Assembly (NCBI GenBank): GCA_002069945.1
Contig: MWCH01000002.1
Coordinates: 15,164-79,163, forward strand
Direction: 5' to 3'
Length of the DNA stretch: 64,000 nucleotides
DNA from: Microgenomates group bacterium ADurb.Bin219
GTDB taxonomy: Bacteria > Patescibacteriota > Microgenomatia > UM-FILTER-40-11
Position numbers and translations under genes: made by a program. The notes beneath the pieces were generated by a model. The model was not told the origin of the DNA. It did not search any database and saw only the letters and a program-made list of their open reading frames with translations. Shown one piece after another: positions 9,299-23,013 of this stretch. Positions within the stretch are counted from its first letter, which is position 1; every line of letters begins with the position of its first letter.

Positions 9299-12200
9299 TT
9301 GATATTAAATAATCGTCTATTTAAACTAAAGAAGATGAGTTGGAACAGTATTGTCAATTATCCCAAATATCTAAAAGAGAAACTAAACTTATCAACAAAA
9401 ATCTTTCGGAAACAAAAAACTTCCCTTTATGCTCTTTTACTTCTTCTTTTTTTTCTGCCTATCTCCATCTTGGTTGTCAAAAAATCAACCTGGCTTGTTC
9501 CAAAAGCACAAACTCCCAATCAATCGGCTGACCCCGGCAACGCTTACGATTTTATTCCCGACATAATTTTCGGCAAGGCGGGATTTGGCGAAATTGTTCC
9601 CAATCAAGTTACGGGAAACCGGGTTTTTTTGCCGGCCGGAATTACGGTTGATAGAGGAACCAGCCCAAACCGAATTTACGTTTGGGACAGCGGCAACAGC
9701 CGAATCCTCGGTTTTACTTCATTGGGAACTTGCGAGAGCGGTGCCAACACCGGCCGGCCTTGCACAAACAATCTTGATTGCCCCTCTTCCGTTTGCCAAA
9801 TAAATTCAACCAAAAATGCGGATCTGGTTTTCGGCCAACCCGATCTGTTTCATGCCGCCTGTAACGGAGATAGTACCATTAAGGCCAACCCCTCCGCTGC
9901 CACTTTATGCTCCCAACGCCATCCAAACCAAATAAGTTTGATTGAAGGACCGGAGCCAAACAATATGGCCGTTGATCAAAACCATAATCTTTATGTCGTC
10001 GATAAATGGAATAATCGGGCTTTAAAATACAACGATCCTTTCAATCCCGATAAAACAGAAGGAAAAGGAGATAATATCGCCGACCAGGTTTGGGGCCAAC
10101 CGGATTTTTTTAGCCGCAGCTGCAACCGGAACGAAAACGACGATTGCCATATAGTTGCCAACCCAACCAGCAACAGTCTCTGTTTAGATTGCCATAATCT
10201 TAATGTTATTAATAGCGAGTTTAATGCCAGCGGCCTGGACGTTGAACCGGACGGATCTCGTCTCTGGATTGCCGACGGAGCCAATCATCGGGTTCTTCGT
10301 TTTCCTGCAGATTCCGGTGATGCCGACTTGGTTATCGGCCAACCAGACTTTTCTTCAAGAAATCCAAACGGCTGTGTTTCTTACCCCAATTTACCGGCAG
10401 AAGATGCCCTTTGTCGGCCAAAAGTGGCCAAATATAGTCCTTTAACCAATCAGTTATATATTCTTGATTGGGCCGATGAAATCAACCTTTTCCGAATTTT
10501 AATTTACGACCCTCCTTTTACCAACAATAAAATGGCTCCTTCGGAAATCATTTACGGAGGGCCAACCGACCAATACCGCGATTTGATTGTTAACCAGGAA
10601 CGTTCCGATTGGAGCTACCACCGGCTCAGCCGTCCGCTGGGATTGGCATTAGATCCTTTTGCTCCCAGTGCTTTTTGGTTAACGGACAATAATCACAACC
10701 GGGCTTTGTATTTTCAAAAAATTGCCGGCAAGTGGCAACCAACCAAGGTTTTACCTCAGCCAAATTTGGAAAGAATTCAGAAGTTCGGCTCTTTCAACTG
10801 CTCAAACTTACCGGAAGAAGAAAGATGGCGGTGCTTTGTCAACCCGAGTGGCTCAGCCGGTATTGATTCCGAGGGAAATATTTATCTGGAATCTAACTTC
10901 CATGAGCAGATTTTGCGATTTTCAGCACCGATTCCCACGCCCCTAGCGGAAGCAACCGGCGACGAGGGAATCGGATACGCAGCGGAAAATGTCTTTCTTA
11001 AACAACAGGAAAATGCTTCCGCCGACCAGATGGTGGGAATAAATTTTATCGGTCCGGCAGGGATACATACTCCCAACGCCGCCTTGACGGTCAACTATAC
11101 AGGCGGGGCAAAACAGCTTTTCGTCCAAGACAAATTCCGAGTGCTTGTCTGGAATGATTACACCAATAAAGTTTCCAATTCTCCGGCAGACTATGTTCTT
11201 TTTCAAAACGATTTTAACAGTCAGCTTACCAACGTAAACAACCAGGCCAATAATTGGCTGGTAAGACAAATGGTTGCCGATTCTCAAGGAAGAATCTGGA
11301 TGGCAAAAGAAAGCCAGGGAGTTTATGTTTTTCAGGGCCCGATTAGTACTTCCCCAGCCACCCCTACGATTATTCCCTTAACCTTAAATCTTAAAAACAG
11401 TTCCCGACCAATCAATCTCGGCTTGATTTCCGGATTGGCTTATGACGAAAATGAAGATTGCCTCTGGGTTGCCGATGCTGACAATTACCGGGTTGTCAGA
11501 ATTAATCACCCTCTTGATCCCAACCAAAGAATTGTTGATCTGGTTTTGGGACAACCCAACCTGGACAGTATTAAACCAAACCGATCCAAAGACGACCGAT
11601 CCGATCCTCAAAACTGCCCCAATATGCAACCGGACAGTTTTGCCTCTTTAAGCAAAATTTACCTGGATAATTTTAAAAATCTTTATGTTGTTGATGCCAC
11701 TCATGAATTGGCTTGGTGCAGCAACAACCGACTGATTGAATACGACAAGACTGATTTGACCGCCAAGTTGGAAGAAGGAAAAGTTTTTCTTGCCGACAAT
11801 GAACTGGTCCCCAAAAGAGTTTATGGCCGATCCGGGTTTACCACCAGCGAAAAAAATAAATATTCTGATGAAAATAAACCCAATGCGCCCTTCTCCATCT
11901 CTTTTACTTCCGACAACAGAATGCTGATCGGCGCCGAGGGTTATGGCAATAAAAACTATAAAAGAATCTACCTGCTCAATAATCCTCTGCCCAATTGCCA
12001 AACTTCCTGCCGGGTGGATGAGGACTATCTTGAACTGGCGCCGGGAGCAATTCCCCAATTTGGCTTATCTTATCTTATTCCCCTTTCGGTGAGCCAGCCG
12101 GACGAAGTTTTTTGGGACAAATCAAATAATCTGATTGTTCTTGATCATGCCTGGAGCCGGGTTCTCTTTTTTAAGACTCCCCTTCCTCCTGCGCCTACTC

Positions 12201-13096
12201 CAACAAATGTGCCCAACTGCGCCACCGTCGGCAGAAATTGCACCAGCGTTCCTTGTTGCACCAGTCAAGGGACTGTCTGCACGAAAATTACTTCTTCCTA
12301 TTATCAATGCCAAATTCCCGGCGCTTCTTCCCAAGAAGGAAACCAAACTCCCACCGACGTACCCAACTGCGCTACTGTCGGCAGAAATTGTATAAGCACT
12401 CCTTGTTGTGCCAGCCAAGGAACCGTTTGTACTCCGATTGTCCCTAACTACTCACAATGTTTAGTTCCCACCGTGGCAACCGGCACGACAACCCCAACCC
12501 GAGTTCCGACTTCAAGCCCAACCCCAACCATAATTCCAACACCAAACGCACCTTCCCCGACTTCCGGCCCCATCTCGGGACCAATAATCAAAGATTTCAG
12601 CTCTGTAGCGGATACTTTTATTTATAACTCTGCCGCAAGCGAAAACAGTAATTTCGGCAGCCAGGGAAACCTTAGAACTTCTTTTTGGTCAAGCACAGAC
12701 ATCCGTCAAAGCTTAATAAAATTTGAATTGTCCGAGATTCCGGTATCGGCAAACGTTACTTCAGCAATTCTTAGCCTTGAATCGGTTGCCTGGGGAGGAA
12801 AAGGAACTACCGTCAGTCTTTACAAATTATTGCAAGACTGGGACGAACTGACGGTCACCTGGAAAAATAAACCCAATCAAGACACCCTTCTTTTGGGGAG
12901 CTTCAATGTAACTTCTTTGGGTAAACACCAGCTCAATTTAACTCCGATTGTCCAATCCTGGATTAATAACCCCAATACCAACAAGGGACTTTTGTTAAAA
13001 ATTGAGGTTAAGGGGTTTGATCTTTACTTTGCCTCAAGAGAAAACAACAATCTGACAAAAAGACCGAAGCTGACGGTTACCTATACGATTCCGTAA
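9299..13096 (+). CDS. Large secreted NHL-repeat (beta-propeller) protein with two tandem Cys-rich mini-modules, a Pro/Thr linker and a C-terminal beta-sandwich-like domain (DNRLRE-like)
   Basis: N-terminal hydrophobic anchor/signal. Repeated YVxDxxNxRhxxF-type NHL motifs (NRILGF, NNRALKY, NHRVLRF, NHNRALYF, NYRVVRI). Two ~37-aa C-x6-C-x4-CC-x6-C-x9-C modules, then a PT-rich linker, then a domain ending ...ASRENNNLTKRPKLTVTY. Real start may be the internal Met at 9335. Confidence 0.6.
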   Translation: MILNNRLFKLKKMSWNSIVNYPKYLKEKLNLSTKIFRKQKTSLYALLLLLFFLPISILVVKKSTWLVPKAQTPNQSADPGNAYDFIPDIIFGKAGFGEIVPNQVTGNRVFLPAGITVDRGTSPNRIYVWDSGNSRILGFTSLGTCESGANTGRPCTNNLDCPSSVCQINSTKNADLVFGQPDLFHAACNGDSTIKANPSAATLCSQRHPNQISLIEGPEPNNMAVDQNHNLYVVDKWNNRALKYNDPFNPDKTEGKGDNIADQVWGQPDFFSRSCNRNENDDCHIVANPTSNSLCLDCHNLNVINSEFNASGLDVEPDGSRLWIADGANHRVLRFPADSGDADLVIGQPDFSSRNPNGCVSYPNLPAEDALCRPKVAKYSPLTNQLYILDWADEINLFRILIYDPPFTNNKMAPSEIIYGGPTDQYRDLIVNQERSDWSYHRLSRPLGLALDPFAPSAFWLTDNNHNRALYFQKIAGKWQPTKVLPQPNLERIQKFGSFNCSNLPEEERWRCFVNPSGSAGIDSEGNIYLESNFHEQILRFSAPIPTPLAEATGDEGIGYAAENVFLKQQENASADQMVGINFIGPAGIHTPNAALTVNYTGGAKQLFVQDKFRVLVWNDYTNKVSNSPADYVLFQNDFNSQLTNVNNQANNWLVRQMVADSQGRIWMAKESQGVYVFQGPISTSPATPTIIPLTLNLKNSSRPINLGLISGLAYDENEDCLWVADADNYRVVRINHPLDPNQRIVDLVLGQPNLDSIKPNRSKDDRSDPQNCPNMQPDSFASLSKIYLDNFKNLYVVDATHELAWCSNNRLIEYDKTDLTAKLEEGKVFLADNELVPKRVYGRSGFTTSEKNKYSDENKPNAPFSISFTSDNRMLIGAEGYGNKNYKRIYLLNNPLPNCQTSCRVDEDYLELAPGAIPQFGLSYLIPLSVSQPDEVFWDKSNNLIVLDHAWSRVLFFKTPLPPAPTPTNVPNCATVGRNCTSVPCCTSQGTVCTKITSSYYQCQIPGASSQEGNQTPTDVPNCATVGRNCISTPCCASQGTVCTPIVPNYSQCLVPTVATGTTTPTRVPTSSPTPTIIPTPNAPSPTSGPISGPIIKDFSSVADTFIYNSAASENSNFGSQGNLRTSFWSSTDIRQSLIKFELSEIPVSANVTSAILSLESVAWGGKGTTVSLYKLLQDWDELTVTWKNKPNQDTLLLGSFNVTSLGKHQLNLTPIVQSWINNPNTNKGLLLKIEVKGFDLYFASRENNNLTKRPKLTVTYTIP
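12209..12460 (+). repeat. Imperfect tandem duplication (~100 nt units) encoding two Cys-rich modules inside the NHL protein
   Basis: VPNCATVGRNCTSVPCCTSQGTVCTKITSSYYQCQ and VPNCATVGRNCISTPCCASQGTVCTPIVPNYSQCL, ~75% nucleotide identity. Confidence 0.8.
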
Positions 13097-14089: not shown

Positions 14090-14092
14090 AAG

Positions 14093-14165
14093 CAGGGATG
14101 GAGGGAATCGAACCCCCGACCGACGGTTTTGGAGACCGTTGCTCTACCAACTGAGCTACATCCCT
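14093..14165 (-). tRNA. tRNA-Trp (anticodon CCA)
   Basis: Hand-folded cloverleaf: 7-bp acceptor AGGGATG/CATCCCT, D arm GCTC/GAGC, anticodon stem ACGGT/ACCGT with loop CTCCAAA, T loop TTCGATT. Sits 3 nt upstream of trpS on the same strand; no encoded CCA. Confidence 0.8.
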
Positions 14166-14173
14166 TTAAAAAG

Positions 14174-14247
14174 TAGCAGGGGCGGGACTCGAACCCGCGA
14201 TCTTTGCGTTATGAATGCACTGCTCTAACCAGCTGAGCTACCCTGCC
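14174..14247 (-). tRNA. tRNA with CAU anticodon (Met or Ile2-type); anticodon stem imperfect
   Basis: Acceptor GGCAGGG/CCCTGCT (G1.U72), D arm GCTC-AGCTGGTTA-GAGC, T arm GCGGG-TTCGAGT-CCCGC all canonical. Anticodon loop TTCATAA, but the anticodon stem GTGCA/CGCAA has only 3 Watson-Crick pairs (A31.C39 and G27.A43 mismatches). Possibly a degenerating copy. Confidence 0.5.
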
Positions 14248-14354
14248 TGGTTTAAATTTGAAATACAGAAGCATTATAACAACAATAAAACTCCGCTTCA
14301 ATTAAAGCGGGGTTCTCGCTTTTATGAATATCGTTATCCCGATCGTATAGAAAG

Positions 14355-14384
14355 AAAAAACCGCCAAATTTATGGCGGTTTTTT
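14355..14384. terminator. Bidirectional intrinsic-terminator-like hairpin
   Basis: aaaaaa-CCGCCA-aattta-TGGCGG-tttttt: 6-bp GC stem flanked by an A-run and a T-run, between the tRNA-like element and the CAU tRNA. Confidence 0.55.
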
Positions 14385-14395
14385 AATAACTCATG

Positions 14396-14465
14396 TTGCG
14401 GGGCCGGGAGTCGCGCCCGGCCTGGAAGATTATGAGCCTTCCGTGCTACTGTACACTACCCCGCA
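14396..14465 (-). ncRNA. GC-rich tRNA-like element with CUCAUAA anticodon loop and non-canonical T-loop
   Basis: Folds as a cloverleaf: acceptor TGCGGGG/CCCCGCA (U1-A72), D arm GTGT-ACAGTA-GCAC, anticodon stem GAAGG/TCTTC with loop CTCATAA, T arm CCGGG-CGCGACT-CCCGG (lacks the T54-psi55 TT). ~70% GC in a ~40% GC genome. Overlapped by the spurious N-terminal extension of ORF 14393..15286. Confidence 0.4.
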
Positions 14466-14512: not shown

Positions 14513-15286
14513 ATGCTGGATTTTCTTGGGAAAACTTCCTATAATTTTTTTATGGATCCGAAACTGCCCATTCGCTCCTCTACCCAAGAACAGGTTCCCC
14601 TGGAAAATATCAGGGATAACCTTTTTATTCTCAAGGACGGCAATTGCGGCGTAGTTCTTTCCGTTTCCGCCTTGAATTTCAGCTTGCTTTCCGAAACCGA
14701 ACAGGAAGCGACAATTTATGCCTATGCGGCCCTGCTTAACTCGCTGACTTTTCCCATCCAGATACTTACCCGCTCAAAGCAAAAAGATATCTCCTCTTAT
14801 CTGGCGATTCTCCTTGAGGAAGAAAATAAACAGAAAAATCCCCTTCTTCAAGGACAAATTAAAAAATACCGCAAATTTGTTGAAGAGATGATTAAAAGAA
14901 ACAACGTCCTCGATAAAGATTTCTACGTCGTTATCCCCTTTTCTCTTTATGAACTGGGGGCGCCGCAGATTATCGGGAAAGGCCTGATTTCCCCAAAAAA
15001 ATCTTTGCCTTTTTCCGAAAATTATATTGTTGAAAAGGCCAAGATTAATCTTGGCCCCAAAAAAGACCAATTGATCCGTCAATTCGGCCGCATCGGCCTG
15101 GTGGCCAGACAGCTCAATACCCAAGAACTGACGGCTCTTTTTTACGAAATTTATAACCCTAAGCAAGCGGAAAGACAAAAAATTTCGGCCGACAATCAAT
15201 ATTCTTCTCCAATTGTTCAACCCGCTCCGTCAGGCCCCCGGCTAAAACTCAATAGACAAACAATTTCCACCAACGGCGCCAGTTAG
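14513..15286 (+). CDS. Hypothetical protein (no recognisable motif)
   Basis: Long ORF with coding-like composition. The track start at 14393 overlaps the tRNA-like element, so an internal Met at 14513 (or 14552) is more plausible. Confidence 0.45.
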   Translation: MLDFLGKTSYNFFMDPKLPIRSSTQEQVPLENIRDNLFILKDGNCGVVLSVSALNFSLLSETEQEATIYAYAALLNSLTFPIQILTRSKQKDISSYLAILLEEENKQKNPLLQGQIKKYRKFVEEMIKRNNVLDKDFYVVIPFSLYELGAPQIIGKGLISPKKSLPFSENYIVEKAKINLGPKKDQLIRQFGRIGLVARQLNTQELTALFYEIYNPKQAERQKISADNQYSSPIVQPAPSGPRLKLNRQTISTNGAS

Positions 15287-15611
15287 ATATCGGCCGGTCT
15301 TCCGTATCAGCTAGGAAATTGGGCGGAACTATTGTCGGCAAAATAATCACTTTTTCTCCCTCTCTGGTCATTCCCAGTTTCTCCCTGGCCTCTTCTTCAA
15401 TAAAATCCTTTCCTTGAACCTTTTCCAGCTTCGCCCTAAGTTCCCGGTTTTTTTCTTCCAACTCCAAAATTTCCGTTTCTAAATCCACCAGCTTCCGACC
15501 AGCTTTCCAAGTAACATAAATCTGTCTAGAAAAATTCACTATAAGGCTAAACAAAAAAATTATTACCAGGCTGTAAAAAAAATTATTCTTCATATTATGG
15601 GTTGACATCAT
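15249..15611 (-). CDS. FtsB/DivIC-like septum formation initiator (TM + coiled coil)
   Basis: N-terminal TM helix followed by coiled coil LELEEKNRELRAKLEKVQ...DFIEEEAREKLGMTREGEKVI, typical of the FtsB/DivIC family. Confidence 0.55.
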   Translation of the reverse strand: MMSTHNMKNNFFYSLVIIFLFSLIVNFSRQIYVTWKAGRKLVDLETEILELEEKNRELRAKLEKVQGKDFIEEEAREKLGMTREGEKVIILPTIVPPNFLADTEDRPISNWRRWWKLFVY

Positions 15612-15620
15612 TCCTGCTTC

Positions 15621-16505
15621 GTGTTATCATTCTCCAATATGAATGAGCCGACCACCATTACTTCTGCCAAATTGGAATTCACGGAAACTCTTAAAAAACA
15701 AAAAAGAGCTTCTGCGACTATTCTAGCATACGGCAATGATATCGCTCAGTTGGAAGCTTTTTTGGCCCAAAAAGGCATTTCCCAAATTTTAGCCATTAAT
15801 CAAGCGGTTTTGGATGAGTTTAAGGCACAAATGGAAAAGGACGGCTATACGGCCAAATCCATCTCCCGCAAGATAAATTCCATTAAAACTTTTTTCCGGG
15901 TTTTACAAAACGAAGGCGTTATTAAAGATAATCCGGCTACTTTATTGGCTCACCCCAAATACGAAACCAAACCCCCGAGAATTCTTTCCAAGGTCGAATA
16001 CCGAGCCTTAAGAGACGCCTGTAGAAACGATGTCCGTATTTCGGCCATCGTTGAATTGATGCTCCAAACCGGATTGCGTATCAGCGAAGTCGCCAATCTG
16101 AAAATTGAAGATTATAAAAACGATTCACTTTTCATTGCCGCCTACGAATCCCATCCGGAAAGAGTTATTCCCTTAAACAAAGCGGCCAAAACCGCCCTGG
16201 AAAGGTATTTAAGCCAAAGGCCGAAAGACATCAAGGAAAAAGCAATTTTTGTGACCAAAACCGGCCGCTCTTTCTTAATCAGAAATATCCGCTCCGCCAT
16301 TGAACGCTACTTTAGCCAGGCCGATCTTAAAAACGTCAAAGTTAACGATTTGCGTCATACCTGGGTATTCTATCAACTGGACGCGGGCGTTTCCGTAGCG
16401 ACGATCGCCAAACTGGCCGGCCACAAAAGAGTTTCCACGACGGAAAAATATTTGGAACTAATCGGCAGTAAAAAAGAGCAAGCGGCTAAACTGGAAGAAT
16501 TGTAA
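15621..16505 (+). CDS. Tyrosine-type site-specific recombinase (XerC/XerD-like integrase family)
   Basis: 294 aa with catalytic residues in GLRISEV ... LRHTWVF ... AGHKRVSTTEKYLEL (R..HxxR..Y). Confidence 0.8.
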   Translation: MLSFSNMNEPTTITSAKLEFTETLKKQKRASATILAYGNDIAQLEAFLAQKGISQILAINQAVLDEFKAQMEKDGYTAKSISRKINSIKTFFRVLQNEGVIKDNPATLLAHPKYETKPPRILSKVEYRALRDACRNDVRISAIVELMLQTGLRISEVANLKIEDYKNDSLFIAAYESHPERVIPLNKAAKTALERYLSQRPKDIKEKAIFVTKTGRSFLIRNIRSAIERYFSQADLKNVKVNDLRHTWVFYQLDAGVSVATIAKLAGHKRVSTTEKYLELIGSKKEQAAKLEEL

Positions 16506-16605
16506 ACCTTCTTTATTTTTGATTGCCTCCCTCCCCTTCTTTGTTTAACTAATTTTTAATGGCAGAATAGAAATATTGGGAGGTTAGGATTTTATTTATA
16601 AATAG

Positions 16606-16646
16606 TAGGCTCGCTTGGGATCGAACCAAGGACCCTTTCTTTATAA
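16606..16646 (-). pseudogene. 3' half (anticodon-loop TTATAA through 3' end) of an interrupted tRNA-Ile(UAU)-like gene ('outer' tRNA)
   Basis: Minus-strand reading TTATAA-AGAAA-GGGTC-CTTGG-TTCGATC-CCAAG-CGAGCCT-A. Its anticodon-stem 3' strand AGAAA and acceptor 3' strand pair perfectly with the 5' half at 16794..16828. Confidence 0.7.
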
Positions 16647-16682
16647 TTTGCTTCGCAAAGTATATTGAATTTCGGACTAAGG

Positions 16683-16754
16683 TGGACCAGCTTGGATTCG
16701 AACCAAGGACTCCGTCTTTATAAGAGACGTACTCTACCGCTGAGTTACTGGTCC
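16683..16754 (-). tRNA. tRNA-Ile (anticodon UAU), intact, located inside the insertion that splits the outer tRNA
   Basis: Cloverleaf: GGACCAG/CTGGTCC acceptor, D arm ACTC-AGCGGTA-GAGT, anticodon stem CGTCT/AGACG with loop CTTATAA (anticodon TAT), T arm CTTGG-TTCGAAT-CCAAG, discriminator A then CC. Confidence 0.75.
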
Positions 16755-16793
16755 AAATTCATTATTAAATTCATTATAATTATTAAATTCATT
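16755..16793. repeat. AT-rich 12-nt tandem repeat (aaattcattatt x ~3) inside the tRNA-disrupting insertion
   Basis: ccaaattcattattaaattcattataattattaaattcattataag read directly from sequence. Confidence 0.8.
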
Positions 16794-16828
16794 ATAAGAG
16801 AAATGCTCTACCACCGAGCTACGAGCCC
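16794..16828 (-). pseudogene. 5' half (5' end through anticodon loop) of the interrupted outer tRNA-Ile(UAU)-like gene
   Basis: Minus-strand reading GGGCTCG-TA-GCTC-GGTGGTA-GAGC-A-TTTCT-CTTAT(AA), followed by the insertion. TTATAA is present at both junctions (16641..16646 and 16792..16797). Confidence 0.7.
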
Positions 16829-16902
16829 CCCAAAATTAGCCTAATTTTAACAGATTCGAAGCAAAAAGGAAAAAATCAGGTAGCCAGTATCAAATATCCG
16901 AG

Positions 16903-19296
16903 CTACAGTCTCGCTCTTTGCGCAATCTCCGCCTCTACCACTGCCTTGGAACGGCCATACTTCAACCTTGACAGCTCTTTTACCATCTCGGACATTTTCG
17001 GATTCTGTTGCTGCCAAATCGGCGGCATGTCTTGTTTCATGGTCATCGAAAAAGCCGGCACCGGTTCGTTACCGACCAAAGTCTTGACATAAGCATTGTA
17101 AGCTTCAATATTAAGCAAGTCCGATTCGGAAAAGGTCGGCGTATATTCGTGTTGCAAATATTGAGCGTCGGTAACGCCTACCCGAAAGCTGATTTTGGTG
17201 CCGCAGTTGCCGAAAACCGCGTTTTTGACTTCGTCATCCATTTGGCCGATAAATTGGTTGGCCACACAAAGACCCAAATGAAACTTTCTGGCCTCGGAAA
17301 GAATTTGGGCAAAATCGGGAGTGGCAAAGTTTTGAAACTCGTCAACGTAAAGATAAAAATCTTTTCTTTGGGCTTCGGGGATATCCGAACGACTCATCGC
17401 CGCCATCAGGATTTTCGGAACCAAAACCAAACCCAAAAAACTGGAATTTTCTTCCCCAATCTGGCCTTTGGCCAGATTGATAATCAAAATCTTCCCCTCA
17501 TCCATCACTTTCCGAAAATCAAAGGAGGATTTAGACTGGCCGACAATATTTCTCATCATCCGGTTGGTGACGAAACGACCAAACTTGGAAACAATGTAAT
17601 CCAAAACCTCGGATTTATGAAAATCGGCGGTCTGGGCAATCTGGTCGGTCCAATAACGCCGCACCATCGGATCCTGAACCTTGGGCAACAATTCTTGAAC
17701 AAAGTTCTGGTCTTGAAGCGCCCGCATTACTTCCACAAAAGTTGCTCCCGGTTCGCACATTACCGTTAACATTGCGTTTCTGATTGCGTGCTCAAACCGC
17801 GGCCCGATAATTCCGGTTTTATAAGGATCGTAAAGTTTATACATCAAATTGATAATCGCCGAGGCGATAAAATGTTTTTGGTCCTCGCTTTGGGCTTCAA
17901 TCAAATTCAAACCCATCGGTCTTTCCGTATCAGCCGGCGAAAAATAAATCACATCCTCTGCTCTTTCCGGCGGAATCAGTTGCATCACCATTTCAAAAGT
18001 GTCATGAGGATCAATAAAACAAAAACCCTTTCCGGCTTTCATATCCTGATACATCATTTTGGCCAAGAGTTGAGATTTTCCGGTTCCGGTGGCGCCAATA
18101 ATGTAAATATGGCGCATCCTGTCCTTGTCCTGAATATAAACCGGCACCTCAATCCCCCGAAAGGCGCTTTTTCCCAAATAAAGTCCTTCCTTGGGAATTT
18201 GCTGAGGAGCCGGCGCCCTTTTGGCATTCAGCCAAAAAATAAAAGGTGTTTCCACGGTTTTATTGGGCAAGTGAAAAATTCCGGCCAATTCTTCGGAAGA
18301 TAAAATTATTTTGTTGCGGAAAAAATAGAGCTGCGGCGGATAACGGTAAATAAAATCGGTCATAAATAACTTGTTTAAACGGATTTTCCGACTTTTAAAG
18401 CCGTTTTGATCGGAGTTAAATTGCTCAAACGCCGCCTTGAGGTTAGCCAAATGCGCTTTTGCCGACTCCATCGTCGGCGAAGAAACAACCATCTTCAAAC
18501 TGACTTCAAAACCAGGCTTAGTGCATTTATTTTCGATTGCTTCCAATTGCTTCGGATCGGTTTTATAAGTTGCCTTTTCCGGATCGGATTCGGTTTTTTT
18601 GGTTTTGGCCAAAAAGCGTTTTCCCGAAGAGGCCCATTTCCGATTAGCCGGCGTAAATAAAAGCTGAATTGCCGCTCCTTCTCCGGGTTGCATCTTGGCC
18701 AAAGCGGAAGTTATTAAGGCCAGCGGGTCGGTCGGCAAATCCTTATAAACTTTAATCGGGAAAAAAGGAGCCGATCGGAATTGAAGCTCGGAAAAAGCGA
18801 CTTTGCCTTTTTCGGAAAAAATATTGTATTCTTTGGCTTCCTGAATTTCGGCTCCGGGATAAGCTCCATGAATCTGTTTTTCCACCATGTCCCTTAATTT
18901 CCCGGGGACGGAAATATAAAAACGAACATCTTCGGGTAAACCGACTATCTCAAAAGAAAGAAAGTCCTGGGATTTTAAAAATTCAAAGCGACCGCCCTTT
19001 CTTAACGAGGAAAAGGCGGCAAACATTTGTTCGGCCGCGTCAATTTTGATCTCGTTGTCTTTGGGAACGGCGACCTGAAGCAAAACATAACCCAAAGACT
19101 TTTTTTCCCGAAAACGATTCCGCCACCAAACAACCAGAAAATAACCGGAGATAAAAAGAAAAATCAGAAAAAATACCCCGAAGGTTAAAATCTCCAAAAC
19201 CAATTGGAAATTGGCTAAAAATAGGTTGTCCAAAAAATTGGAAACTGGTTCACTGGGCGGCATTTTCTTCCTTTCTGAAGACGGTCTGTTTGTCAA
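16903..19296 (-). CDS. Membrane-anchored VirB4/VirD4-superfamily ATPase (type IV secretion / conjugation-type AAA-like, TraG-D_C-like C-terminus)
   Basis: N-terminal TM helix; Walker A IIGATGTGKSQLL followed by FIDPHD; C-terminal DEFQNF...RKFHLGLCVANQ Walker B/arginine-finger-like region, as in T4SS coupling proteins and VirB4. Confidence 0.55.
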   Translation of the reverse strand: MTNRPSSERKKMPPSEPVSNFLDNLFLANFQLVLEILTFGVFFLIFLFISGYFLVVWWRNRFREKKSLGYVLLQVAVPKDNEIKIDAAEQMFAAFSSLRKGGRFEFLKSQDFLSFEIVGLPEDVRFYISVPGKLRDMVEKQIHGAYPGAEIQEAKEYNIFSEKGKVAFSELQFRSAPFFPIKVYKDLPTDPLALITSALAKMQPGEGAAIQLLFTPANRKWASSGKRFLAKTKKTESDPEKATYKTDPKQLEAIENKCTKPGFEVSLKMVVSSPTMESAKAHLANLKAAFEQFNSDQNGFKSRKIRLNKLFMTDFIYRYPPQLYFFRNKIILSSEELAGIFHLPNKTVETPFIFWLNAKRAPAPQQIPKEGLYLGKSAFRGIEVPVYIQDKDRMRHIYIIGATGTGKSQLLAKMMYQDMKAGKGFCFIDPHDTFEMVMQLIPPERAEDVIYFSPADTERPMGLNLIEAQSEDQKHFIASAIINLMYKLYDPYKTGIIGPRFEHAIRNAMLTVMCEPGATFVEVMRALQDQNFVQELLPKVQDPMVRRYWTDQIAQTADFHKSEVLDYIVSKFGRFVTNRMMRNIVGQSKSSFDFRKVMDEGKILIINLAKGQIGEENSSFLGLVLVPKILMAAMSRSDIPEAQRKDFYLYVDEFQNFATPDFAQILSEARKFHLGLCVANQFIGQMDDEVKNAVFGNCGTKISFRVGVTDAQYLQHEYTPTFSESDLLNIEAYNAYVKTLVGNEPVPAFSMTMKQDMPPIWQQQNPKMSEMVKELSRLKYGRSKAVVEAEIAQRARL

Positions 19297-19642
19297 ACAT
19301 CTTAATCAAGCGGCGGCACCATTCCGCCAACCAGCGGACCGATTCGGAAACTTTTTGTTTTAAACCAAAAAGAAACGTTGCCTCGCTTATCGGCAAAACA
19401 ATCTGCGTCGGTTGGGCGGACGGCGCGGTTACTAAAGTTTGGCCGTAATCATCAGTAATCGGTTTGGCCAAGTAAATCTCCTTTTCAATTTTTTCAATAT
19501 AGGGCTGGACCTCTTTTTCGATTTCTTTTTCCTTTTCTTCAACCACCGGAAAGCGCTCCTCTTCTTCATTAAAAAGAGAGTTCAGAACTTCCTTCTCTTT
19601 ACTCATTGATCCGGCCGGAGACGAGGTAACGGGCAGTGCCAT
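19250..19642 (-). CDS. Hypothetical small acidic protein (overlaps start of ATPase gene by 47 nt)
   Basis: 130-aa ORF; Glu/Lys-rich low-complexity N-terminal half; no recognised motif. Confidence 0.35.
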   Translation of the reverse strand: MALPVTSSPAGSMSKEKEVLNSLFNEEEERFPVVEEKEKEIEKEVQPYIEKIEKEIYLAKPITDDYGQTLVTAPSAQPTQIVLPISEATFLFGLKQKVSESVRWLAEWCRRLIKMFDKQTVFRKEENAAQ

Positions 19643-20592: not shown

Positions 20593-20736
20593 TCATTTTT
20601 TGCCAATAATGTAGGTCTTTCTCTGTTCAAACTCCTGCTGTTTGCCGTCATTCCATTGCGATATCGGTCGGAGATAGCCGACAATACGGGAAAAAATCTC
20701 ACAGGGTTGCCTTTTAAGAATTTTGGTTTGGTCCAT
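20593..20736 (-). CDS. 47-aa stand-alone peptide corresponding to the NrdD C-terminal glycyl-radical tail
   Basis: Not in ORF track (<60 aa). MDQTKILKRQPCEIFSRIVGYLRPISQWNDGKQQEFEQRKTYIIGKK carries the class III RNR glycyl-radical signature RxxGYL...WNxGKxxExxxR. Strong RBS AAAAAGGGAGGTTGT-ATG; lies 72 nt after the nrdD stop. Confidence 0.55.
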   Translation of the reverse strand: MDQTKILKRQPCEIFSRIVGYLRPISQWNDGKQQEFEQRKTYIIGKK

Positions 20737-20808: not shown

Positions 20809-23013
20809 TTACTCTATCTCCACCCGGTATCCTTCTTTCTCCAATTCTTTCTTTTGTCTGATTAGATCTTCGTCACATTTGGGACAAAAACTAAAACCAC
20901 CCTTAAGATACCCGTGACGGGGACAGATACTGAAAGTCGGCGTCAGGGTAAAATAAGGCAAATGAAAATTTTCGGCGATCTTTTTAACCGCCGTTTTGAC
21001 CGTTTGGATATCGGAAAGGCTTTCTCCTAAAAAACCATGCAAAACCGTTCCTCCGGTATATTGGCATTGAAGTTCATCCTGATGTTCCAAGGCTTCAAAA
21101 ATATCGGCAGTATAATCAACCGGCAAATGAGTTGAATTGGTATAATACGGTTCTGCTTTTTTCTCCTTAACCGCCCGGTTGTTGGCAAAAATTATCTCCG
21201 GATAACGTTTCCGATCCTCGCGGGCAAAACGATAAGAAGTTCCCTCGGCCGGAGTTGCTTCCAAATTAAAAAGCTGGCCGGTTTCTTCTTGATAACGACC
21301 GATTCTCTCCCTCATAAATTTCAAAACTTTCAAGGCAAAGCTGCGTCCTTTTTTGGTCGCGATGTTTTCCCCCAAAAGATTTAAACAGGCTTCGTTCATA
21401 CCCACTAAACCGATGGTGTTGAAATGGTTTTTCCAATATTCGCCGAAGCGCTCTTTGATTGGCGTCAAAAAAACCTGGGAATAGGGATAAAGTCCTTTTC
21501 CGGTAAAATCTTCAACCACTTTTCTTTTGATCATCAAGCTTTCCTTGGCCAAATCCATCATTGCGGCCAGATTTTGAAAAAAATCCTTTTCTTTCTTGGC
21601 CAAAAAACCAAGTCTCGGTAAATTAATCGTCACTACCCCAACGGCTCCGGTCAAAGGATTGGCGCCAAAAAGTCCGCCGCCTTTTTTCCTCAATTCCCGA
21701 TTGTCCAAGCGCAATCGGCAACACATACTGCGCGCGTCTTCGGGGCTCATATCGGAATTAATAAAATTGGAAAAATAAGGAATGCCGTATTTTCGGGTTG
21801 CTTCCCAAAGATTTTCCAAATCCGGATTGTCCCAATCGAAATCCTTGGTGATATTAATGGTCGGGATCGGGAAAGAAAAAACCCGGCCCTGGGCGTCGCC
21901 TTCCAACAAAACCTCGCCAAAAGCACGGTTAAAAAGATTCATTTCTTTTTGAAAATCACCATAGGTCTTTTTTTGCGGCTGGCCGCCGACAATGACCGAT
22001 TCTTTCGCCATCATCTTTGGAACCTTCAAGTCCAAAGTCACGTTGGAAAAAGGCGTTTGAAAACCGACCCGGGTCGGCACGTTCATATTAAACATGAACT
22101 CCTGCAAGGCCTGTTTGACCTCAAGATAATCCAATTTGTCGTAATAAATAAACGGCGCCAATAAGGTATCAAAATTTGAAACCGCCTGAGCTCCGGCCGT
22201 TTCTCCCTGAAGGGTATAAATTAAATTAACCAATTGGCCGAGCGCGGTCCGAAAATGTTTTGGTGGACGTGAATTCAGTTTTCCGGAAACGCCGCCGAAA
22301 CCTTTGACTAAAAACTCGCGCAAATCCCATCCGCAACAGTAAGCCGCCAAAATCGCCAGGTCGTGGAGATGTAAGTCGCCGTTTAAATGAGCATCCCCAA
22401 TCTTCTTAGGATATATTTGATTTAGCCAGAAATTTGAAGAAACCAAGCTGGCCACGTGGTTATTCAACCCCTGGAGAGAAAAAGTCATATTACTGTTTTC
22501 CTTAACCCGCCAATCCAGCTTTCCCAAATAGTTTTTAATCAGCTCGTCCGAATCCACCAGGCTTTCAATGCTTCTGATTTTGTTATGCAGCTCCCGGTAA
22601 AGAATATAAGCTTTAGAAACCGCCACCAGCCGATTTTTAATCAGAACCTCTTCAACAATATCCTGAATCTGTTCTACCCCGGGAATTAAATGACCGTCAA
22701 AGCGCCGATCGAGGATTTTACTGACCTCAAGTGCCATTTGCCTGGCTTTCGGCAAATCCACCTCTCCCACCGCCCACATTGCTTTGGAAATGGCAATAAA
22801 AATTTTTTTCCGGTCAAAATCAACAATCCGACCGTCCCTTTTGCAAATTTGTCTCACTGGTCGGGAAATCTTATTTGCCGTCTCGTTTAGTTTTGATTTA
22901 TTTTTAAAACTATTTTTCATCATTCTCCACAAAAAAACCTGCCCCTGTATCTTTTGTGAAGATATTATCACTCTTCCCCACTGAAGCCTGTCAACCGGTA
23001 ATTTTAATATCAA
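20809..23013 (-). CDS. nrdD: Anaerobic ribonucleoside-triphosphate reductase large subunit (class III), lacking its own glycyl-radical tail
   Basis: N-terminal ATP-cone (RDGRIVDFDRKKIFIAISKA), large NrdD body, C-terminal Zn-ribbon-like TPTFSICPRHGYLKGGFSFCPKC. Ends ~20 aa after the ribbon with no RVxGYL motif. Confidence 0.8.
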   Translation of the reverse strand: MILKLPVDRLQWGRVIISSQKIQGQVFLWRMMKNSFKNKSKLNETANKISRPVRQICKRDGRIVDFDRKKIFIAISKAMWAVGEVDLPKARQMALEVSKILDRRFDGHLIPGVEQIQDIVEEVLIKNRLVAVSKAYILYRELHNKIRSIESLVDSDELIKNYLGKLDWRVKENSNMTFSLQGLNNHVASLVSSNFWLNQIYPKKIGDAHLNGDLHLHDLAILAAYCCGWDLREFLVKGFGGVSGKLNSRPPKHFRTALGQLVNLIYTLQGETAGAQAVSNFDTLLAPFIYYDKLDYLEVKQALQEFMFNMNVPTRVGFQTPFSNVTLDLKVPKMMAKESVIVGGQPQKKTYGDFQKEMNLFNRAFGEVLLEGDAQGRVFSFPIPTINITKDFDWDNPDLENLWEATRKYGIPYFSNFINSDMSPEDARSMCCRLRLDNRELRKKGGGLFGANPLTGAVGVVTINLPRLGFLAKKEKDFFQNLAAMMDLAKESLMIKRKVVEDFTGKGLYPYSQVFLTPIKERFGEYWKNHFNTIGLVGMNEACLNLLGENIATKKGRSFALKVLKFMRERIGRYQEETGQLFNLEATPAEGTSYRFAREDRKRYPEIIFANNRAVKEKKAEPYYTNSTHLPVDYTADIFEALEHQDELQCQYTGGTVLHGFLGESLSDIQTVKTAVKKIAENFHLPYFTLTPTFSICPRHGYLKGGFSFCPKCDEDLIRQKKELEKEGYRVEIE

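Follow-up and report, generated by a model that had tools for sequence, protein, structure and literature searches.

A coupling-protein-like DUF8128 ATPase in conserved Microgenomatia chromosome and the nested tRNA-Ile(UAU) beside it

Type IV secretion systems (T4SSs) of the Patescibacteria (candidate phyla radiation, CPR) have been described as nested in MPF-FATA (PMC12102498). A total of 5,713 VirD4-like type IV coupling proteins (T4CPs) were reported in 2,918 Patescibacteria genomes, with 148 of them near virB4, and the 2,272 TrsD homologues found in the phylum are mostly near virB4 (PMC12102498). Relaxases are almost absent and the system was therefore judged to be repurposed (PMC12102498). 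The same chromosomal T4SS of Patescibacteria is the subject of Wang et al. 2023, as cited in PMC12102498. T4SS-like machinery is essential in Saccharibacteria (Ca. Southlakia epibionticum, PMC12102498), and according to a 2025 review epibiotic growth requires the T4SSs of Patescibacteria (PMC12857230). A cultured member of the Microgenomatia is reported in a 2026 preprint to feed on host RNA and to bear T4SS-like pili (10.64898/2026.06.21.733656). virB4 is missing from about 20% of Patescibacteria. Here we describe a membrane-anchored ATPase of the DUF8128 family and the genes around it in a 64,000-nucleotide stretch of the Microgenomates group bacterium ADurb.Bin219 (contig MWCH01000002.1, positions 15,164 to 79,163 of the forward strand). 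This whole stretch is called the window, and all positions are counted from its first letter.

A preliminary description of the window, made from its letters alone, proposed that a tyrosine recombinase, the ATPase and a disrupted tRNA are the remnant of an integrated conjugative element. That proposal did not hold. The segment is ordinary core chromosome that the Microgenomatia inherit vertically, and it carries a domesticated conjugation-type ATPase. The reading that we favour, at a probability of roughly 0.62, is that the DUF8128 ATPase is a coupling-protein-like motor serving a chromosomal, MPF-FATA-derived T4SS-like apparatus, and that the segment belongs to the core chromosome. The ATPase is among the most conserved proteins of the Microgenomatia and belongs to a family without an assigned function.

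The ATPase gene (Table 1) has two possible starts, a TTG that gives the 797-aa product and an ATG at 19263 that gives 786 aa and is the start used in the public annotation. Its motifs are a Walker A (GATGTGKS), FIDPHD and a Walker B (DEF). Three Pfam models exceed their cut-offs: TrwB_AAD_bind (31.7 bits, cut-off 20.5), DUF87 (28.6, cut-off 23.2) and TraG-D_C (22.9, cut-off 22). The best NCBIfam matches are T4CP models, SXT_TraD at 1.8e-12 and a CD1115 VirD4-like model over residues 390-707. FtsK_SpoIIIE stays below its cut-off of 24 with 18.7 bits, and its match covers just the 34 P-loop residues 382-415. The Pfam scan gave no match to Ftsk_gamma, and AAA_10 and CagE were without a match in the Pfam and NCBIfam scan. 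With the three Pfam models above their cut-offs, the ATPase is of conjugation type (T4CP/VirB4 superfamily) and not FtsK, as had been proposed. PF26449 (DUF8128) is recorded for a public protein of 100% identity and for all 120 homologues among the matches listed; our own Pfam scan did not return PF26449. In an alignment of 41 homologues the mean column identity is 73%, and no variation is seen in the Walker A (G390-S/T397), the Walker B (D641, E642) or Q670.

An AlphaFold2 (AF2) model of the ATPase (pLDDT 80.9) contains a helix at residues 8-49, an alpha/beta domain at 55-375 and a RecA ATPase at 376-786. The TrwB-like nucleotide-binding domain (NBD) holds an all-alpha helical insert at about 460-590 and the TraG-D_C motif. 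Acidic residues precede the first helix and RNRFREKK follows it, which suggests an N-out/C-in topology. When the full model was compared with the PDB using Foldseek, the first match was TrwK/VirB4 of R388 (2e-16, about 860 aligned columns), followed by HerA, TrwB (6e-12, target-normalised TM score about 0.6) and Cag-beta. The N-terminal domain (NTD) was also modelled alone (pLDDT 73). Its top 14 Foldseek matches are all VirB4 chains (2.6e-8 to 6.5e-6) at a query TM score of about 0.48, and the matches that come after VirB4, at 1e-4, are unrelated folds. With TM scores to VirB4 of about 0.45-0.49, the resemblance in fold is moderate. The models thus predict that one membrane anchor is followed by a VirB4-NTD-like domain and then by a T4CP-like motor.

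An orthologue of the ATPase is carried by at least 582 species-representative genomes. Neighbourhoods anchored on the ATPase were compared in 80 of these genomes, in 2 metagenomic relatives and in 4 close relatives. Relatives that share the gene order have ATPases 62-88% identical to that of the window. The recurring order, established with tblastn of the window proteins, is two penicillin-binding proteins (PBPs), a CAAX protein, DUF5667, in some cases NrdD and NrdG, a small open reading frame (ORF), the ATPase, tRNA-Ile(UAU), a variable slot, a Xer recombinase on the opposite strand, DivIC, two tRNA-Met, tryptophanyl-tRNA synthetase (TrpRS) and FtsH. The tRNA-Ile(UAU) lies 3' of the ATPase gene in 45 of the 49 loci scanned. 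Where the sequence extends 9 kb or more beyond the ATPase on its downstream side (43 loci), Xer and DivIC lie 3' of the ATPase in 27 cases. Conservation of the ATPase equals that of FtsH: median identities in the related loci are 64% for the ATPase (minimum 61%), for FtsH and for NrdD, and 53% for both Xer and TrpRS.

The composition of the segment does not set it apart. GC content is flat across the block at 0.40-0.45 and matches the surroundings. No k-mer deviation, which the preliminary description had named as a check, was found; in 4-mer distance the part at 14-21 kb resembles the window as a whole (z -0.5 to -1.4). A repeat scan of 13-21 kb found no bracketing repeats of the attachment-site (att) type and just chance-level repeats of up to 21 nt. 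The only direct repeats above chance in that scan are the two nested tRNA copies, which are 74-77 nt apart and lie within 230 nt. No relaxase, VirB4, VirB6 or pilin was found among the window ORFs scanned by profile, and when the T4SS proteins of a relative were searched against the window by tblastn, the TraC-like gene alone matched. The earlier observation that no relaxase or pilin is visible stands. It had also been suggested that a housekeeping FtsK/HerA-type ATPase, in a block conserved across relatives and free of flanking repeats, would speak against an element. The block is indeed syntenic, conserved and without flanking repeats; the ATPase is not of the housekeeping FtsK/HerA type and is of conjugation type.

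The slot that separates tRNA-Ile(UAU) from Xer measures 52-6532 nt across genomes and is a hot-spot whose cargo varies. Cargo in relatives includes Fic/HTH, nitroreductase, bAvd/23S-rRNA-IVP and unknown ORFs (L001 10743-12341, L003 10495-11723, L008 12430-18830, L092 10330-10803 and L093 10380-11513). This slot is the sole mobile-looking behaviour of the locus. In the window the slot (16506-16605) is empty, with 100 nt from the Xer stop to the outer tRNA.

A second T4SS-related gene lies on the other side of Xer and DivIC. The preliminary description called this ORF, of 258 aa by its count, motif-less. That was mistaken. It matches part of the NCBIfam model VirB4_plasma near the N-terminus (4.7e-11, model positions 102-290 of 894) and TrsD/TraD (2e-6), both below the cut-offs set for full-length proteins. 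The likely true start is the ATG at 14552, which gives 244 aa. All 1094 homologues carry PF26593, with cited identities of 52-97%, and PF26593 is on record for the near-identical public copies of the gene, including one from the same species. Judged by these sequence matches, the ORF is a stand-alone TrsD/TraC-like protein related to the N-terminus of VirB4. When the DUF8128 domain and the ATPase domain were each compared with the TraC-like family by hhalign, nothing was found (probability below 1%), and any kinship of the two VirB4-NTD-like modules, the N-terminal domain of DUF8128 and the TraC-like protein, therefore rests solely on structure and on separate sequence matches.

The TrsD/TraC-like gene has two placements. 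In other Microgenomatia (L084, L090, L091; identity 56-59%) it lies directly 5' of virB4. In the window and in L003/L085, L086, L087, L092 and L093 it abuts divIC without a nearby virB4. A hidden Markov model (HMM) search placed a TrsD/TraC-like gene beside DivIC in 1 of 83 loci (L003), to which annotation adds L086, L087, L092 and L093. The placement beside DivIC is confined to the window's own clade. The simplest reading is that the gene was relocated from virB4 to divIC, although it may instead be a second copy.

The T4SS locus itself is found elsewhere in related genomes, which carry virB4 together with the DUF8128 ATPase. In order, it comprises a pilin array, large unknown proteins, a PrgI-like protein, the TraC-like protein, VirB4, a CHAP hydrolase, dnaN and dnaA. 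In one relative (k141_81781) about 46 kb separate it from the DUF8128 gene. Among the 120 VirB4 matches listed, which do not include that of the window genome itself, VirB4 is conserved to the same degree as the DUF8128 ATPase. The canonical Microgenomatia T4SS locus is seen in L084 (1144-15633) and in L090 and L091 (1-14611), with divergent T4SS_pilin arrays, several unannotated proteins of 500-1000 aa and a VirB4 of 615-624 aa. In these three loci the start of VirB4 overlaps the stop of the TraC-like gene by 4 nt, and the pair looks like a split VirB4 on account of this overlap.

The small acidic ORF overlaps the start of the ATPase gene, as had been noted, by 47 nt if the TTG start is used and by 14 nt from the ATG at 19263. 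In each of the 77 related loci whose upstream sequence is long enough, an ORF ends no more than 150 nt from the start of the ATPase gene, and in most of them it overlaps that start. The conserved part in the alignment is the C-terminal motif LPL..GL..S.RWLA.WC.R..K only. The ORF has no Pfam, NCBIfam or PHROG family. An HMM of it found no counterpart 5' of the distant DUF8128 genes in L088, L089 and L084, so the partner is either specific to the Microgenomatia or too divergent to detect. The ORF is probably translationally coupled to the ATPase gene.

Outside of the Microgenomatia, DUF8128 proteins are widespread. A profile of the N-terminal domain found 3590 cluster representatives, 381 of them at E<=1e-30, which are typically 800-1400 aa long with the domain at the same position. 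A literature search for DUF8128 gave no match. In the other CPR lineages sampled the gene has mostly housekeeping neighbours, and L089 alone has it near a T4SS pilin gene and dnaN. Full-length homologues outside of the CPR are 20-30% identical over 80-94% of the protein, and are known from 367 plasmids and 44 phages of Bacillus and Geobacillus. The plasmid hosts are Bacillus, Streptomyces, Staphylococcus, Clostridium, haloarchaea and Sulfolobus. On the Peribacillus plasmid NZ_CP068052 the DUF8128 gene is followed by genes for a replication-relaxation protein, a conjugal transfer protein and TcpE. On the haloarchaeal plasmid pHTS138 of Haloterrigena a pilin gene is followed further on by a conjugal-transfer protein, a separate DUF8128-like ORF and a T4CP with TraM recognition. 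The phage family PHROG 5156 matches the ATPase at 1.4e-96. A 754-aa 'hypothetical protein' of Geobacillus phage TP-84 (L097 5495-8034) is a DUF8128-type ATPase and is preceded by an overlapping gene for a small membrane protein. Gp156 of Bacillus phage G is a full-length DUF8128-type ATPase. In the conjugation modules of monoderms and archaea the DUF8128 family thus provides a genuine component of coupling type, and in the Microgenomatia it has become a fixed core gene.

The VirB4-like N-terminal domain, the T4CP-like motor, the membership of conjugation modules elsewhere and the domesticated single copy with a coupled partner make the ATPase a candidate energising or coupling component of a T4SS-like host-interaction machinery. 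The segment would then combine housekeeping genes (tRNAs, DivIC/FtsB and a single Xer) with two dispersed parts of the domesticated, monoderm-type chromosomal T4SS of the phylum. A single N-out/C-in transmembrane (TM) helix would tether the cytoplasmic VirB4-NTD-like domain and the TrwB/VirD4-like RecA ATPase, and the protein may form a hexameric ring at the membrane. Hydrolysis of ATP, for which the Walker A, Walker B and sensor residues are intact, would power the recruitment of a substrate, either protein or nucleic acid, and its movement through the T4SS channel by a push or a pull. This channel would be encoded elsewhere, at the virB4/pilin locus near dnaA. The TrsD/TraC-like protein may act as an accessory subunit of VirB4 that resembles the VirB4 N-terminus, and the acidic ORF could encode a lineage-specific, co-translated partner, adaptor or regulator of the ATPase. 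The preliminary description had mentioned in passing that such ATPases of the CPR are discussed as parts of T4SS-like host-interaction machinery, and this is the reading that the evidence favours.

Several observations weigh against this proposal. In the Microgenomatia loci examined the DUF8128 gene never adjoins virB4. The scores against the curated NCBIfam T4CP models are far below their cut-offs (SXT_TraD 46.5 against 366, CD1115 31.7 against 250, TraD_Ftype 19 against 521), and the VirB4 models fail on the ATPase as well (TIGR00929 18.9 against 643, P-loop_TraG 12.2 against 25.8). The VirB4-like N-terminal domain of about 320 aa is foreign to textbook T4CPs. In Ca. Southlakia epibionticum a T4CP homologue, not necessarily of the DUF8128 family, is non-essential while the T4SS is essential (PMC12102498), and the authors of that survey leave it possible that the T4CP was exapted to another role (PMC12102498).

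Such an exaptation is the strongest of the alternatives, and we consider it unlikely. The ATPase would then be a housekeeping translocase independent of the T4SS, either an FtsK-like DNA pump that works with Xer and DivIC at the septum or a motor for the uptake of host nucleic acid. Xer and DivIC are indeed a few hundred bases to a few kb away in about two-thirds of Microgenomatia loci. However, Xer is convergent with the ATPase gene, and the tRNA and the variable slot with its unrelated cargo lie between them, so that Xer and the ATPase do not form one operon. The whole 25-kb region is syntenic, which makes the adjacency to Xer no more special than the adjacency to NrdDG, and in the other CPR classes sampled the adjacency to Xer is missing. 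The ATPase is a membrane-anchored member of the FtsK-HerA superfamily, but its resemblance to FtsK is limited to the sub-threshold P-loop match, with no FtsK gamma domain detected. Its conservation at the strength of a core gene, the genomic uncoupling from virB4 and the option left in the survey (PMC12102498) agree with a separate role; against this, the DUF8128 members outside of the CPR sit within conjugation modules, and titles and term matches, which concern Saccharibacteria only, point to a separate ftsK in that group. The report that a cultured member of the Microgenomatia feeds on host RNA (10.64898/2026.06.21.733656) fits the second form of the idea, and the class-wide ATPase could drive the import of nucleic acid from the host into these parasites.

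The recombinase was taken in the preliminary description as part of the footprint of an element. It is a class-wide gene of Xer type, always paired with divIC, and not the integrase of an element. Its likely start is the ATG at 15639 (288 aa). It matches the TIGR models for XerD, XerC and XerA at 1e-46 to 1e-39, with about half of the cut-off scores. Orthologues are 43-78% identical and hold the same position throughout the class. Across 47 orthologues the catalytic R, K, R, H and Y do not vary, and all 47 have Asn at the His-II position (motif NDLRH). The gene looks like the housekeeping Xer of the lineage, as far as its sequence can tell. Upstream of the Xer ATG, at 15602-15630, lies a near-consensus promoter (TTGACA, 17 nt, TG-TATCAT). 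Its end is 8 nt from the ATG, and this short distance suggests a leaderless mRNA.

We regard the remnant of an integrated element as very improbable. On that account a decayed integrative and conjugative element entered at a tRNA gene and left the recombinase, the coupling ATPase and the disrupted tRNA. The ATPase family does belong to conjugation modules on plasmids and has homologues in phages, among them PHROG 5156, yet in the Microgenomatia the ATPase evolves like a core gene. The tyrosine recombinase adjoins tRNA genes, but the gene order is class-wide and includes both the tRNAs and the recombinase. The slot that is filled with Fic, nitroreductase or bAvd/23S-IVP in relatives is empty in the window. 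The undisturbed composition, the lack of att-type flanking repeats other than the nested tRNA halves, and the window scans without relaxase, VirB4, VirB6 or pilin argue in the same direction. Any acquisition must antedate the radiation of the class or the phylum (PMC12102498), which makes it a case of domestication and not a remnant element. A recombinase, a conjugation-type ATPase and tRNAs resemble an island and yet are core chromosome here. This combination should therefore not be flagged as mobile DNA in scans of CPR genomes.

A HerA/MADS-type module made up of the ATPase and its small partner, either serving anti-phage defence or derived from phage, can be set aside as highly implausible, for although PADLOC mad8 matches at 1.3e-18, HerA matches weakly, NCBIfam HerA_antiphage reaches about 1e-3 and phage homologues exist, the matches are limited to the generic ATPase core, no MADS, Sir2, DUF4297 or nuclease partner is nearby, and defence genes are patchy and fast-evolving whereas the ATPase is universal in the class and 62-81% identical.

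The oddest feature of the locus is a small but unusual object, the nested tRNA. The disrupted tRNA of the preliminary description is real in that two tRNAs are nested, but it is not a simple disruption: one complete tRNA sits precisely inside the anticodon loop of another. The two outer halves, when joined, form a perfect tRNA-Ile(UAU) cloverleaf. They are parted in the anticodon loop by about 146 nt, between two copies of the palindrome TTATAA. Within the insert the inner tRNA is flanked by mutually complementary spacers, with a tandem repeat of 2x18 nt on the 5' side and the hairpin TTTGCGAAGCAAA on the 3' side. This hairpin is conserved across the nested copies compared. The same nesting occurs in L003 (10856-11049) and L102 (2634-2862), and an identical copy occurs in L100 (7800-8045). 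Neither the nearer relatives L092 and L093 nor, in the loci scanned, the rest of the class has it. Uninterrupted tRNA-Ile(UAU) genes of the outer type are present in other Microgenomatia, for example L043, L005 and L061.

The outer halves of the window match those of L003 at 36 of 37 bases (5' half) and at 39 of 41 (3' half), or 95-97%, and their flanks are not conserved. In the inner tRNA seven pairs differ between the two, and all of the changes are compensatory. A consensus fold of three genomes contains 10 compensatory pairs, of which 3 are in a 6-bp spacer helix. The nested tRNA looks like an intron-like RNA arrangement and not like an att scar. We put forward only tentatively, as a doubtful proposition, the fuller reading that it is a real arrangement at the RNA level, in which an intron-like insert is itself a complete tRNA-Ile(UAU) closed by the spacer helix. 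If the inner tRNA were released by RNase P and RNase Z, the outer precursor would be cut into halves, and these halves would need to function as a split tRNA or be ligated again. Were this the case, the route by which the nested tRNA is processed would be one not described for bacteria.

Table 1. Features of the segment with their window positions and the basis of each assignment
Feature	Position	Strand	Basis
tRNA-Trp(CCA)	14092-14165	-	ARAGORN; Rfam tRNA 73.8 bits
tRNA-Met(CAU)	14173-14247	-	ARAGORN; Rfam tRNA 63.6 bits
Second tRNA-Met(CAU), 71 nt	14395-14465	-	ARAGORN; Rfam tRNA 44.3 bits
TrsD/TraC-like ORF, 257 aa	14513-15286	+	NCBIfam VirB4_plasma and TrsD matches; PF26593 in homologues
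DivIC/FtsB-type septum-formation protein	15249-15611	-	Pfam DivIC 1.1e-16
Xer-type tyrosine recombinase	15621-16505	+	Phage_integrase 7e-27; SAM_1 6e-15
Outer tRNA-Ile(UAU), 3' half (anticodon-stem 3' strand, T arm, acceptor 3' strand)	16606-16646	-	Direct sequence reading
Insert in the anticodon loop of the outer tRNA	16647-16792	-	ARAGORN, Rfam, repeat scan, consensus fold
Inner complete tRNA-Ile(UAU)	16681-16754	-	ARAGORN; Rfam 69.1 bits
Outer tRNA-Ile(UAU), 5' half (acceptor 5' strand, D arm, anticodon-stem 5' strand, loop CTTATAA)	16793-16829	-	
DUF8128-family membrane-anchored ATPase, 797 aa	16903-19296	-	Pfam, NCBIfam, AF2 model, Foldseek
Small acidic ORF, 130 aa, pI 4.97	19250-19642	-	Matches no family

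The features listed in the preliminary description (the tRNA cluster, the ORFs, the recombinase, the ATPase and the acidic ORF) were all found again in place (Table 1). The tRNAs at 14092-14465 are a housekeeping cluster that adjoins TrpRS, and the vicinity of DivIC and TrpRS holds two tRNA-Met genes in most related loci. The second tRNA-Met has an unusual D-loop and a weak Rfam score (44 bits), and similar tRNA-Met genes of 70-72 nt are found in relatives. This recurrence makes it probably a genuine initiator or elongator tRNA (or one of tRNA-Ile2 type) and not a pseudogene. The DivIC gene is convergent with the TrsD/TraC-like ORF and overlaps it by 38 nt. The surroundings of the block encode FtsH, a 1265-aa NHL/CBM96 surface protein, TrpRS, NrdG, NrdD, DUF5667, leucyl-tRNA synthetase, a CAAX protease and two class-A PBPs, and the remaining window genes are housekeeping in the window protein scan.

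Other observations concern these neighbours. A separate 47-aa ORF at 20593-20736 (minus strand) is the glycyl-radical C-terminal peptide of the anaerobic ribonucleotide reductase, with the motif SRIVGY. It starts 72 nt past the stop of the large NrdD ORF (20809-23013, minus strand), and the split point is within a C-terminal Cys cluster that is presumed to be a Zn ribbon. Annotation shows the same split in L003, L086, L087 and L092, with an NRDD ORF of 45-47 aa. The 1265-aa protein (9299-13096, plus strand) is secreted, carries NHL repeats and CBM96, and has duplicated Cys-rich modules linked by Pro/Thr. Within this part of the window its gene alone deviates strongly in tetranucleotide composition (z about 2.65 for 8-15 kb). 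A scan for promoters and terminators yielded about as many as chance predicts (9 where 8.2 were expected, and 10 where 7.8 were) and was left unused except for the strong promoter-like site before the Xer ATG.

The architecture of the DUF8128 ATPase bears on the divergence of VirB4 and VirD4. The T4CPs TrwB (R388), VirD4 and Cag-beta resemble it in the RecA NBD, the Walker A and B motifs, the all-alpha insert, TraG-D_C and the N-terminal anchor. They differ from it in having two TM helices where the ATPase has one, and the ATPase has the extra domain of about 320 aa between anchor and NBD. Sequence identity to these proteins is 14-16%, and the ATPase has no relaxase or oriT partner. VirB4/TrwK of the R388 inner-membrane complex (PDB 8rtd, 7o42), the best PDB match, has a similar layout of an NTD followed by a C-terminal RecA domain. 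In contrast to VirB4/TrwK, the ATPase has its own TM helix and a C-terminal region of T4CP type, and it fails the VirB4 sequence models; a separate, bona fide VirB4 is encoded in the same related genomes as the DUF8128 ATPase.

FtsK/SpoIIIE with XerCD is likewise a case of a membrane-anchored ATPase of the FtsK-HerA superfamily, and here too the gene is near Xer and a divisome gene. The ATPase differs from FtsK/SpoIIIE in that the match is at the level of the P-loop only, no gamma domain was detected and one TM helix is predicted. Its adjacency to Xer is non-operonic and limited to one class. The DUF8128 copies of the Bacillaceae and haloarchaea are on mobile elements beside relaxase-like, VirB4-like, TcpE or pilin genes, whereas the window copy is in the chromosomal core without them. 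Haloarchaea, unlike the window, encode the DUF8128 part in an ORF of its own. The gene of phage TP-84 shares with the window ATPase an overlapping small ORF upstream.

The closest described case is that of the T4CP and TrsD homologues surveyed by Quinonero-Coronel et al. 2025 (PMC12102498), which are of the same phylum and the same families and include chromosomal T4CPs without a relaxase and far from virB4. Since these homologues were catalogued in 2025, the ATPase and the TrsD-like protein of the window belong to a known system. The published virB4/pilin arrays of Patescibacteria are near dnaA/dnaN, as they are in the relatives described here (PMC12102498). The survey treats T4CP and TrsD as HMM matches only. 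What is new in comparison is the VirB4-NTD-like fold predicted for the DUF8128 domain. New as well are the fixed, class-wide position of the ATPase in the Microgenomatia, with its coupled small ORF and tRNA-Ile(UAU), and the displacement of TrsD to divIC in the clade of the window.

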